Shown: positions 2,304 through 5,593 of the stretch, piece after piece
How positions within the stretch are numbered: the first letter of the stretch is position 1
Layout: the number at the start of each line of letters is the position of its first letter
The notes under the pieces: model-generated
What the model saw: only the letters and a program-made list of their open reading frames with translations
The model's database searches: none
Told to the model about the DNA's origin: nothing
From: an uncultured archaeon
GTDB taxonomy: Archaea; Hadarchaeota; Hadarchaeia; Hadarchaeales; WYZ-LMO6
NCBI GenBank assembly: GCA_938074535.1
Contig: CALJER010000026.1
Span: 1 to 43,912, forward strand
Length of the DNA: 43,912 nucleotides
Direction: 5' to 3'
Translations under genes and position numbers: made by a program

Positions 2304-3856
2304 AGACCCTGGCGGATGAGCTCTTCAGGGAGTTCAGGGAGCACAGCGTAAGCGAGTTCTTCAGGAAGAACGCGGCCATGCTGGGGTACACCGGGAAGGT
2401 GCGGTCCCTCACCACCGTGGTCCACGAGGCCGTGACCAACTCCCTGGACGCCTGCGAGGAAGCGGGCATCCTTCCCGACATCAAGGTGGAGATCAGGAGG
2501 GTGGACGAGGACCCGGAGCACCTGAGGGTGGCGGTGGAGGACAACGGGCCTGGAATCCCGGAGAAGTTCATACCCAGCGTCTTCGGGAAGATGCTGGCGG
2601 GGACCAAGCTGCACAGGCTCCTGCAGCAGAGGGGCCAGCAGGGGATAGGGATTTCTGGGGCGGTGATGTTCGCGCAGATCACCTCGGGGAAGCCCGCCCT
2701 GGTGAGGACTTCCACGGGCGACGGCAGGGTGGTGGAGGTGGAGGTCTCGATAAACGTGGACAGGAACGAGGGGGAGGTGCACGGCAAGAGGGTGGAGGAG
2801 GGGGGATGGAAGGGCACGAGGGTGGAGCTGGAGCTGAAGGAGGTTGTCTACCAGCGCTCCCGCTACAGTCCCTTCCACTACCTGGAGATGACCTCCGTCG
2901 CCAATCCGCACGCCAGGATCACCCTGGAGGAGCCCGACGGGACGAAGACGGTTTTCGAGAGGGTGGTGAAGGAGGTCCCCCTCCCCCCGGAGCCCATGCC
3001 CCTCTACCCCAAGGGGCTGATGGCCGACGACCTTCTGGTCCTCTGCAGATCCTCGAAGAGCAGGACGCTGGCGGGTGCTCTCACCGGGGAGCTCTCCAGG
3101 ATGACGAAGAAGAAGGTGGAGGAGGTGGAGCGCCTGTCGGGGGTGAGGCTGGACAAAAAGCCCCAGGAGCTGACGTGGGAGGAGGCGGAGAGAATCGTGA
3201 AGGCCTTCAGGCAGATGAAGTTCATGGCACCCTCCTCCAGCGGGCTGAGACCCATCGGCAGGGAGCACATCGAAAAGAGCCTGAGGCGGATGTACGAGCC
3301 GGAGTTCGTGTCGGCCGTGACCAGGGAGCCCAAGTTCTACCGCGGGGGCATACCCTTCGTGGTGGAGGTGGGGATGGCCTACGGAGGGAAGGCCGGGAGG
3401 AAGGAGGAGGGTGAGGGGATGGAGGGAATGGAGCTCCTGAGGTTCGCCAACAGGGCCCCCCTGATTTTCGACCAGGGAGGGTGCGTGATCACCTCCGCCC
3501 TCAGGAGCATAGACTGGGGGAGGTACGGCCTGAACCCGGAGGCTTCCCCCCTCACGGTCTTCGTGAATTTCTGCTCCGCCTACGTCCCCTACACCTCAGC
3601 CGGGAAGCAGTCCATAGCGGAGGAGCCGGAAGTCTACGAGGAGCTCAGGTTCGCGGTGATGGACGTGGCCAGGGAGCTGCGCTTCTACCTGTGCCGCAAG
3701 ACCAGGCAGAAAGAAAAGGAGCAGAGGGCAGGGATCTTCGAGAAGTTTTTGCCCATCATAGCCCAGAAGGCCTCCTCCCTGGCCGGGGAGGAGCCTCCGG
3801 ACATAAGGCCCGTGCTGAAAAAGGTAACGGGGTTGGAGCCCGATGGAGGGGAGTGA
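2300..3856 (+). CDS. top6B: DNA topoisomerase VI subunit B
   Basis: GHKL motifs [19 protein letters not shown] and [10 protein letters not shown]; RFANRAPL; [12 protein letters not shown]. Confidence 0.97.
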
Positions 3857-4925
3857 AGGGGGAAGCAGGAAGCAGAGGACCCTCGAGAAACTCGGGAAGC
3901 TCGGGAAGGGGGTGCTGCAGGAGCTGAGGGAGGGCAGGCCCCCCAGGCTGAAGGTTCCCTCCAGGGGGACCTCCAACATCGTGTACGACGAGAAACACGG
4001 GTACTACGTGCTCGGGCCCAGGTACGAGGTGCGCTCGGCCTCCAGCATGGCACAGGTGAAGAAGTTCGCCCAGACCCTCTGCGTGGCGGATTTCTGCAGG
4101 GAGCTGGTGACGAAGGGGAAGTTCGCCACCCTCAGGGAGATGTACTACACCGCGGAGGGATGGGAGCCGGGGCCCTTCAGGGACCAGGACGAGTCCGACC
4201 TGCTGGTGGAGGACCTTGAGGCCATGCTGGGGGTGAAGAGGGAGGACCTGGCCCTGATGCCCGAGGAGGACGGGGCGGCGGTCTTCGGCGATCTGACGGT
4301 GAGGGAGGAGGGCGTGACGATCAACGCCCTGAAGGCGGGGAGGGGGGGGTACACCATTCCGCCCACCATCGATGAGGTGAAGTTCGTGAAGTGCGGGGCC
4401 AAGAGGGTGATAGCCATAGAGACGATGGGCATGTACCACCGCTTCGTGCAGGAGGAGGCCTGGAAGAAGTTCGAGGCGCTGATCGTGGGGCTGAAGGGGC
4501 AGGCGGCCAGGGCCACCAGGAGGTTTTTGAAGAGGGCGAGGGAGGAGCTCGGTCTGCCGGTTTACCTCTTCTGCGATGGCGACCCCTTCGGCTACCACAT
4601 AGGGATGGTCATCATCTCCGGCAGCGCCAAGCTGGCGTACATCAACCATGAGCTCGCGGTTCCGGATGCGAAGTACATAGGGGTGACGGCCAGCGACATC
4701 ATCGACTACAAGCTTCCCACCGACAAGCTGAGGGAGCTGGACATCGCCCGTCTGAAGCAGCTGCAGAAGGATCCCCGGTACAACACGGAGTTCTGGCAGA
4801 GGGAGATCAGGAAGATGCTGGAGCTGGGGAAGAAGGCCGAGCAGCAGGCCTTCGCCAAGTACGGGCTGGAGTACGTGGTGAGGGAGTACCTGCCCGCCAA
4901 GCTCAGGGAGGTGGAGGGATCCTGA
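3843..4925 (+). CDS. top6A: DNA topoisomerase VI subunit A
   Basis: TLREMYY catalytic Tyr region, QDESD, TOPRIM E and DGDPFG, KAEQQA. Confidence 0.97.
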
Positions 4926-4930
4926 CTCAG

Positions 4931-4945
4931 TTAAGCCTTTATGGG
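4931..4945 (+). promoter_or_regulatory. putative TATA-like promoter for the tRNA-Asn precursor
   Basis: TTAAGCCTTTATG, the AT-richest patch, about 20-30 nt upstream of the leader/tRNA start. Confidence 0.45.
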
Positions 4946-4974
4946 GAGTTGCCTTAGGAAGGGTGCCGGGGAGT

Positions 4975-5128
4975 GCCGGGGTGCTGCTCAGGCAGCCCGA
5001 AAGCTCAGCAGGTAGAGCGCTCGGCTGTTAAACCCGGTGTGGATGAAGAGCGAGCCTCAAGAGGAAAGGACGACGCACCGGGTGCCGCGACCGAGCGGTC
5101 AGAGGTTCGAGTCCTCTCCCCGGCGCCA
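4975..5128 (+). tRNA. tRNA-Asn(GTT) with two introns: 4983-5001 (19 nt, position 8/9) and 5031-5089 (59 nt, position 37/38); CCA encoded
   Basis: Removing both introns gives a perfect cloverleaf GCCGGGG TA GCTC AGCAGGTA GAGC G CTCGG CT GTT AA CCGAG CGGTC AGAGG TTCGAGT CCTCT CCCCGGC G CCA; both introns have bulge-helix-bulge junctions. Confidence 0.92.
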
Positions 5129-5290
5129 GAACAAGAGGTGAAACCCGAAAAAGCGAAGTGGGCTTAGAATCACCTGTTCTTCCTCTTCTTCTTCAAAAGA
5201 CCACTTCCTCCTCCTTCTTTTCTTCGGCCTCCCTCTCCTTGGGTTTTGTTTTTCAGTTTTCTTTCCTGCTTTCTTAACCATTCTCTTCAT
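5099..5290 (-). CDS. possible small basic/acidic protein with an AT-hook-like RRGRPKK motif
   Basis: ORF preceded by a BRE/TATA-like GCGAAAAACTTTAAG at 5335-5321; low complexity; its 3' end overlaps the tRNA antisense. Confidence 0.3.
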   Translation of the reverse strand: MKRMVKKAGKKTEKQNPRRGRPKKRRRRKWSFEEEEEEQVILSPLRFFGFHLLFWRRGEDSNL

Positions 5291-5593
5291 CCCTTTTGTT
5301 TTCAACGCGCACATCCGTTTCTTAAAGTTTTTCGCTCAAATTCCTGACCCCAATTCGCTTTTCGGGGGCAGGCATGGTCGAAAGAGGCGAGCTTCAGGAA
5401 AGGATCCGGCAGGTGCGGGGAGGATTCTTTGAGAGAATTCAGGACGTGTTTTAGCGAGGCGTAACTTGCGAGCGAAATCCTTGCATCACCCGAGATGGGA
5501 GCTATGCCAGCGGAGTGCGGTTGCTGGTTTTGGCTTTGCACTTTTACGGTCCCTCGGCGTCATTCTTTTTAGCTTTCACTCCTGAGGAGCTTG

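Follow-up and report, generated by a model that had tools for sequence, protein, structure and literature searches.

Non-canonical bulge-helix-bulge (BHB) introns of archaeal tRNA genes were reportedly treated by Marck and Grosjean in 2003 and by Sugahara in 2008. In the accessible text of two reviews, such introns are short, are defined by their BHB, are cut by EndA and joined by RtcB, and can lie anywhere in the tRNA, with several possible in one gene (PMC4090602, PMC4033280). The non-canonical positions given there include 3/4, 20/21, 22/23, 25/26, 29/30, 30/31, 45/46, 53/54, 56/57 and 59/60; the same text mentions neither 8/9 nor 9/10 nor a leader element. The stretch analysed here, referred to as the window, comprises all 43,912 nt of contig CALJER010000026.1 (assembly GCA_938074535.1) from an uncultured archaeon of the order Hadarchaeales, and contains a tRNA-Asn(GTT) gene with an intron at 8/9. 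This intron resembles the known ones in being a short BHB intron of the EndA/RtcB type. It differs in that an intron at 8/9 (or at 9/10 in other tRNAs) borrows the 5' acceptor strand, and is always accompanied by a copy of that strand in the leader. We read the copy as a cis-acting 'pseudo-acceptor' leader that frees the genuine 5' strand for folding of the BHB, and give this reading a probability of about 0.6.

In the split and permuted tRNA genes of Nanoarchaeum equitans, Caldivirga, Thermofilum and Cyanidioschyzon, sequence outside the mature tRNA likewise pairs to hold the pieces together, enables splicing and is later removed. There it is the complementary flanks that make up the BHB, and EndA cuts them away, whereas the tRNA-Asn transcript is single and colinear and its leader helix has no bulges. 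Unlike those flanks, the leader pairs with the mature 3' acceptor strand and would need removal by RNase P after strand exchange. The tRNA-Asn gene is neither split nor permuted, being one colinear unit (4975–5128) with one promoter-like box upstream. Archaeal pre-rRNA processing stems also present a BHB to EndA by means of a long helix, but both of their strands are flanking and the BHB lies inside the helix; here, one strand belongs to the mature product and the BHB is located in an adjacent hairpin. Sequestor/anti-sequestor switches, such as attenuators and riboswitch expression platforms, depend on two exclusive helices that compete for one strand, and pairing between leader and 3' end slows RNase P on pre-tRNAs. 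The leader would be similar to these switches as a decoy that decides which exclusive helix forms. Unlike in attenuators and riboswitches, no ligand or ribosome takes part, the switch would be resolved by the irreversible removal of the intron, and the decoy nearly copies a part of the mature RNA.

For Hadesarchaea, the accessible text of Kaneta et al. 2018 reports an α4 EndA with an L3 insert and a marked rise in disrupted tRNA genes, and makes no mention of leaders (PMC5829648). We found no published description of a leader copy tied to 5'-proximal introns in the accessible literature, including PMC3218864, PMC8450103, PMC3728597, PMC3241643 and 10.64898/2026.10.13.758758; the primary intron catalogues and supplementary position tables lie outside this coverage and terms such as '8/9' and '9/10' are unsearchable, so a prior mention is possible. 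The BHB intron itself is of a known kind. The part that appears new is the obligatory helper element outside it.

The 8/9 intron and the leader copy of tRNA-Asn

The features of the gene are as follows.

4938–4945, + strand: putative TATA-like box TTTATGGG of the tRNA's own promoter, 13 nt past the stop codon of the upstream topoisomerase VI subunit A gene (sequence)
4962–4973, + strand: full leader stretch able to pair in the window genome, 12 contiguous pairs with 5116–5127; the outer positions are unconserved, and 4972–4973 would compete with the T stem
4964–4971, + strand: conserved leader core ('pseudo-acceptor strand'), T4964 plus GCCGGGG (4965–4971), which repeats the acceptor 5' strand; the core can pair with the 3' acceptor strand and G73 (5118–5125)
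4975–4982, + strand: 5' exon, acceptor strand G1–G7 and U8 (sequence, ortholog comparison)
4983–5001, + strand: 19-nt non-canonical intron at 8/9, with acceptor nucleotides 3–6 in the central helix of its strict hBHBh' motif (sequence, orthologs)
5002–5030, + strand: exon 2, A9–A37, with the D arm, the 5' strand of the anticodon stem and the anticodon GTT at 5027–5029 (Rfam alignment, sequence)
5031–5089, + strand: canonical 37/38 intron of 59 nt, containing the order-wide conserved block GGATGAAGARCGARCCTC (boundaries from the Rfam alignment and the 76-nt product)
5090–5128, + strand: exon 3, A38 to the 3' end, with the T arm, CCCCGGC at 5118–5124, discriminator G5125 and the encoded CCA at 5126–5128 (sequence, Rfam)

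The stretch 4975–5128 encodes tRNA-Asn(GTT) in three exons. Removal of 4983–5001 and 5031–5089 leaves 76 nt with GCCGGGG/CCCCGGC, U8, A9, the GTT anticodon and CCA, which restores a standard tRNA. The strict hBHBh' of the first intron has an outer helix of 2 bp, a central helix of 4 bp, two 3-nt bulges and an inner helix of 4–5 bp. An earlier reading of the window from its letters alone (the sequence-only reading) had proposed this BHB, and its coordinates and letters are all correct. CGGG (4977–4980) pairs with CCCG (4996–4999), the bulges are GTG (4981–4983) and AAA (5000–5002), and the flanking stems are CTGC (4984–4987) with GCAG (4992–4995) on the inner side and GC (4975–4976) with GC (5003–5004) on the outer side. 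Removal of 4983–5001 does join U8 (4982) to A9 (5002), as it had claimed, and GTGCCGGGG does occur at both 4963–4971 and 4973–4981.

The BHB can form only when acceptor nucleotides 3–6 pair with the intron and not with the 3' acceptor strand. The helix between leader and 3' strand is continuous in the window (12 pairs, no bulges); the BHB is made instead by the 5' exon and the intron. Non-canonical introns are usually seen as self-contained BHB cassettes fit for any site. The arrangement found here indicates a limit on position and a way around it: close to the 5' end, formation of the BHB precludes the acceptor stem and vice versa, and a cis element added outside the mature tRNA would resolve the conflict.

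Sixty-five Hadarchaeales genomes were searched, 60 of which contain one tRNA-Asn match each (59 parsed automatically and one, L055, by eye). Widening to the level of the phylum brought in one further genome, which gave no match. Leader pairing was scored as contiguous pairs between the 30 nt upstream and the 3' end of the tRNA. The 8/9 intron is present in 24 of the 60 genes and is 15–21 nt long. All 24 intron-bearing genes carry a leader copy, which forms 8–12 contiguous pairs and ends 1–4 nt before +1. No copy is found in 34 of the 36 intron-free genes (best pairing 3–7 in the 33 scored; L055 judged by eye). Among the orthologs with the 8/9 intron, all four central BHB pairs are present in 23/24, the outer helix is 2 bp long in 24/24, and the inner helix has at least 2 bp in 23/24. 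The inner helix covaries, with at least nine distinct helices (for example, CTGC/GCAG, CCGC/GCGG and CCACC/GGTGG).

The mature 5' exon GCCGGGGT is invariant in 59/59 parsed orthologs, and the 60th, L055, has GCTGGGGT. The leader copy occurs as GCCGGGG, GCCGGG, GCCGG and GCTGGGG; the changes are either C to T, which keeps a G·U pair with the 3' strand, or lie at the 3' end of the copy. This reads as a signature of selection on pairing, not on identity. When the 26 leader-bearing genes are anchored on the copy, positions 1–5 are conserved at 85–100%, and bases further upstream at 35–77%. The base preceding the copy is a pyrimidine in all 26 (18 T, 8 C), and pairing with G73 is therefore possible. 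The sequence-only reading had described a leader of 12 pairs, 4962–4973 with 5116–5127. These 12 contiguous pairs, one of them G·U, do exist in the window, but the conserved pairing extends only over a pyrimidine plus GCCGG(GG), approximately 8–10 bp. The two outermost G:C pairs (4962–4963) are no conserved feature, since G occupies those positions in only 14–15 of the 26 genes.

A TTTAT/TTATA-type box is located at a comparable place in the orthologs. Its spacing was taken from a crude regular expression, which matched in 22/24 leader genes and approximately 23 leaderless genes. The distance from the TATA-like box to the mature +1 is 37–42 nt in leader genes, as compared with 30–36 nt in leaderless genes. 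The first G of the copy lies 27–34 nt from the box, approximately where +1 usually lies in ordinary genes, and always follows a pyrimidine. From this spacing, the copy sits at the normal +1 place and is likely transcribed. Transcription probably starts at or just before the copy, at about 4963–4966, and the transcribed pairing would then amount to approximately 9–10 bp and resemble a flush acceptor stem.

The leader pairing exceeds what chance would give, and the copy is specific within the genome (G000, of which the window is contig C26). Its 37 ordinary full-length tRNAs have 2–8 contiguous pairs between leader and 3' end, and five of them have the same GCCGGGG acceptor and no copy. A generic scan for a T arm, a 3' strand and upstream sites pairing at 7/7 positions gave 48 candidates, among which a second fully pairing site within 25 nt is restricted to the tRNA-Asn gene and a tRNA-Lys gene with a 9/10 intron. 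The tRNAs of this genome with D-loop introns have no copy. After mononucleotide shuffling of the 30 upstream bases, at least 10 pairs arose in 69 of 5000 trials.

A shorter complementarity was also observed. In nine of the 37 full-length tRNAs of this genome, the 3–4 bases before +1, (T)GG(T/C), could pair in register with the discriminator and CC(A) (for example, C7:7692, C17:61127, C16:3613 and C9:19265). In these tRNAs, base −1 tracks the discriminator (T with A73, C with G73); such pairing would lengthen the acceptor stem in the precursor.

Relatives contain extra tRNA-Asn introns in the D loop (approximately 27–30 nt) and the T loop (approximately 30 nt), at loci including L013, L015–L018, L023, L027, L028, L030, L045, L053 and L059. 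Up to four introns occur per tRNA-Asn gene (L028 and L059, 212-nt genes), and their state varies within genera at one syntenic locus.

Leader copies in tRNA-Lys, tRNA-CAT and tRNA-Tyr

In the tRNA-Lys(CTT) gene on contig C14 of the same genome, GGGCCC immediately precedes GGGCCCGT, and a strict BHB intron lies at 9/10. The order was scanned for a pattern that required only the 5' exon GGGCCCGT, a short 9/10 insert and the start of the D arm, and no leader; this found 18 genes for Lys-CTT and CAT tRNAs in 16/65 genomes of seven genera. In 18/18, a sequence able to pair with the 3' strand CGGGCCC lies upstream: GGGCCC in 11, GGGCCCG in three, GGGTCCG in three and GGGCTTG in one. These variants depart from the acceptor by C to T alone, which retains G·U pairs. 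The intron-free Lys ortholog L069 has no copy. The C14 gene (89–226, minus strand; locus L063/L064) apparently has three introns, at 9/10, inside the anticodon stem and near 38/39. Rfam matches it at model positions 7–64 only, with a sub-threshold 24.8 bits, and routine annotation would miss the gene.

A second scan covered one genome per species (approximately 185,000) for the Asn-type 5' exon with an insert, again with no leader required. The 26 hits consist of 22 from Hadarchaeales, all with a copy, one tRNA-CAT from Geothermarchaeales, also with a copy, and three chance matches in bacterial bins. The tRNA-CAT belongs to a Candidatus Geothermarchaeales metagenome-assembled genome (MAG; G065) and has GCCGGGG, a 4-nt spacer, GCCGGGGT and a 12-nt insert. 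It is a single case, with no comparable ortholog in the 40 related genomes searched.

In the same MAG, tRNA-Tyr has GGT-CCCGCG-AAA ahead of CCCGCGGT and a 28-nt intron at 9/10, and the three tRNAs with D-loop introns have no copy. Seven more tRNA-Tyr genes with a 9/10 intron were found among 60 relatives, so that 8/8 have an upstream copy. The leaders are GGT plus CCCGC(G), or CCCGTGG, again with C to T. The conserved GGT pairs with A73-C74-C75, which suggests that the leader of the Tyr family is fully transcribed. Intron-free tRNA-Tyr genes have the copy in 0/11 (six further loci, L174–L179, are outside this count).

Altogether, 51/51 genes whose BHB uses the 5' acceptor strand carry a leader copy, with three acceptor sequences, four tRNA identities and two phyla. 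Relatives with the intron and no leader, which the sequence-only reading had named among the findings that would refute its proposal, number 0/24 for Asn (8/9), 0/18 for Lys/CAT (9/10) and 0/9 in the second phylum.

Folding models, proposed order of events and alternative readings

Folding was modelled with the ViennaRNA partition function at 37 and 75 °C, with P(BHB helix) taken as the mean probability of the four central BHB pairs. For the Asn family without the leader, P(acceptor stem) is 0.95–0.99 and P(BHB helix) at most 0.013 in 24/24 genes. With the leader, the mean P(acceptor stem) falls to 0.013 (37 °C) and 0.048 (75 °C), and P(BHB helix) has means of 0.36 and 0.39 and medians of 0.21 and 0.42 at the two temperatures. 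Shuffled leaders give approximately 0.10–0.12. In the Lys/CAT family (18 genes), the median P(BHB helix) at 37/75 °C is 0.82/0.49 with the leader versus 0.000/0.004 without it. In the Tyr family (seven genes parsed; L155, with a 3-nt spacer, was left out), it is 0.79–1.00 with and at most 0.007 without, at 37 °C. The models thus agree with the proposal of the sequence-only reading that the leader sequesters the 3' acceptor strand: the leader is predicted to take this strand, and the BHB helix is essentially unavailable without it. In silico splicing at 8/9 raises the mean probability of the native stem in the Asn family from 0.013/0.048 to 0.34/0.37, and the true acceptor stem wins in approximately 9/24 genes.

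These data are thermodynamically compatible with the following order of events. The copy would be transcribed, probably as the extreme 5' end of the primary transcript, and would pair with the 3' acceptor strand as a look-alike of the acceptor stem, leaving the genuine 5' strand available for a BHB with the intron. EndA would cut behind U8 and ahead of A9; the 8-nt 5' exon (8–9 nt across families) would be held to the body by the leader helix while RtcB joins the exons. After loss of the intron, the leader could give way to the genuine 5' strand in pairing with the 3' strand; RNase P would cut the resulting conformer at +1 and draw the equilibrium to the mature tRNA. The design favours splicing before 5' maturation, because unspliced RNA lacking the leader would lock in the normal acceptor stem and hide the BHB, and we infer that splicing precedes cleavage by RNase P.

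Several observations weigh against the pseudo-acceptor reading. Despite the leader, P(BHB helix) stays below 0.1 in 9/24 Asn genes at 37 °C and 6/24 at 75 °C, as it does in a few Lys/CAT genes (L132 and L140). After in silico splicing, the leader is still predicted to hold the 3' strand in most Asn genes, with a median P(true acceptor) of 0.012 (37 °C) and 0.081 (75 °C). Secondary structure alone therefore does not account for release in the models, which must depend on tertiary folding, temperature or a sparsely populated conformer that RNase P traps. Neither tRNA tertiary contacts nor proteins enter nearest-neighbour models, and EndA might catch a short-lived BHB unaided. Of the sequencing runs that contain the stretch, none is on record as RNA; four runs labelled metatranscriptomic yielded only contigs of a relative's unspliced genomic form, which continue into the flanks and have no joints or ends, and are uninformative on expression, transcription start and splicing. 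The leader and intron are approximately 10 nt apart, so their co-inheritance is partly trivial linkage, and independent origins are few, perhaps three or four intron families. As linkage alone could move leader and intron together, the co-occurrence count is not treated as a statistical test. In favour of the reading, the tRNA-Asn locus is syntenic between intron-bearing and intron-free genes, and on each of two neighbour-gene trees (13 and 14 taxa, quick method) the intron state changes at least three times, with the leader tracking the intron each time.

A further point against the reading is that the copy is not strictly coupled to the intron: two of the 36 intron-free tRNA-Asn genes, L056 and L058 (family f5), have it and form 10–11 pairs. 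Both (in genomes G009 and G012, respectively) contain the full leader copy, GGTGCCGGGG..., with no 8/9 intron, and a third genome of the genus (L029) has neither. This reflects either a precise loss of the intron or a duplication that preceded it; the copy can thus outlive or precede the intron. Since these two relatives keep the copy alone, it appears necessary for the intron and not bound to it. They also indicate that a leader-bearing, intron-free precursor can be matured, which fits the last step proposed above.

Such alleles, which are evidently viable, would also fit a leader pairing that serves another purpose (protection of the 3' end, blocking of premature RNase P cleavage, CCA addition or aminoacylation, a quality-control timer, or an initially transcribed or promoter-proximal element), with an intron that merely tolerates it. 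The nine of 37 tRNAs of the window genome with a short in-register leader complementary to the discriminator and CC (at least three pairs) suggest that pairing between leader and 3' end is a general habit in this lineage. We consider this explanation unlikely: the full-length copy is found in 51/51 genes with an acceptor-consuming intron as compared with 2/36 intron-free Asn genes, 0/46 other candidates of the window genome and 0/11 intron-free Tyr genes, and the folding switch specifically concerns the BHB.

The leader-only alleles, the tandem arrangement of the copies (period approximately 10 nt in the window) and the linkage that alone would keep intron and copy travelling together are also what a non-functional scar would leave. 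The copy would then be a by-product of the arrival of the intron, through a local tandem duplication or through integration and excision of a mobile element that duplicated a 5' tRNA fragment. In the accessible text of a published model, integration of mobile elements is the source of both upstream 5' tRNA fragments and intron gain (PMC3293823). A neutral scar should take any change, yet all internal substitutions preserve pairing with the 3' strand, and the copy is retained across families in which the flanking intergenic sequence is unconserved. It recurs with the three acceptor sequences, four tRNA identities and two phyla noted above, and neither an integrase nor an element is present at the locus, whose neighbours are topoisomerase VI subunit A and ornithine cyclodeaminase-family genes; a scar is therefore improbable.

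It is very hard to credit that the mature tRNA really begins with the upstream copy (transcription starting at G4965, with a longer intron of about 4972/4973–5001 and no RNase P step, in contrast to the predicted mature GCCGGGGUAGCUC, 4975–4982 joined to 5002): the distance of the copy from the TATA-like box is similar to the +1 distance of leaderless genes, the constant preceding pyrimidine gives an initiator-like Y/G context and the intron CCCG could pair with the CGGG of the copy too, but the copy is followed by A or G, not U8, in 22/26 genes, its positions 6–7 are truncated or mismatched in several (GCCGGGA, GCCGGAT) while the downstream GCCGGGGT is invariant in 59/59, the alternative BHB would have almost no inner helix in the window, and the genome contains RNase P RNA.

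Extended to all families, the pseudo-acceptor reading becomes a general rule, so far undescribed, to which we would give even odds. Introns that borrow the 5' acceptor strand (8/9–9/10) would exist only with a transcribed pseudo-acceptor leader, a built-in RNA chaperone that licenses splicing, tethers the 5' exon and orders splicing, strand exchange and RNase P cleavage; it would have arisen repeatedly (Asn, Lys, Met/Ile-CAT and Tyr, in Hadarchaeota and a Thermoproteota-related lineage). If the rule is true, genes that standard tRNA finders miss or truncate may explain some of the 'missing' tRNAs in MAGs. If confirmed, the element would be a clear natural case in which an RNA-encoded folding decoy sets the order of two processing steps, and would explain the rarity of acceptor-proximal introns. 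Conformational control of tRNA maturation could then be studied in a manageable in vitro system consisting of EndA, RtcB, RNase P and one transcript of approximately 165 nt.

The locus, the genome and the canonical intron

The tRNA-Asn gene lies between a topoisomerase VI subunit A gene (3843–4925) upstream and an ornithine cyclodeaminase-family gene downstream. The genome is 1.2 Mb in 53 contigs and 93.6% complete. It encodes one EndA (C39:19161–19415; 184-aa frame; PF01974, 122.6 bits) and one RtcB ligase (PF01139, 590.8 bits), and contains full-length RNase P RNA (178.7 bits). ARAGORN reported no tRNA in the whole 43.9-kb window, and Rfam gave only a truncated tRNA-Asn match there, to the tRNA body at 5002–5117 (model positions 9–63, 31.5 bits). 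Routine annotation of such MAGs is probably without tRNA-Asn. If the leader is confirmed, it would give annotators a diagnostic signature for genes of which ARAGORN finds nothing and Rfam only model positions 9–63. A scan of 4850–5300 for sigma-70 promoters and intrinsic terminators, which does not cover archaeal promoters, gave no match.

Two other readings of the locus were rejected. Against a pseudogene, each genome has this gene as its sole tRNA-Asn match; against an integrated element that left a duplicated attachment site, the locus lacks an integrase and its neighbours are syntenic.

The canonical 37/38 intron contains a conserved block at 5040–5062 of the window (GGATGAAGARCGARCCTC[A/C]A), found at the same place in loci L001–L062; it consists of a C box-like motif and then a stretch resembling the 3' half of the T arm. 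A D box-like motif (CGAC/CTGAC) is located downstream of the block. The block may serve as a guide encoded in the intron or have a structural role. Rfam at permissive thresholds on 4930–5150 gave only the tRNA and sub-threshold noise, with no small-RNA match, and the idea of a C/D box RNA is thus without support from Rfam. By eye, the central helix of the canonical-intron BHB has three of four pairs in the window genome (GCCG opposite CTGT; 5084–5087 versus 5025–5028). Many relatives have GCAG, which gives four of four pairs, and the contigs of a close relative have C>T at 5086.

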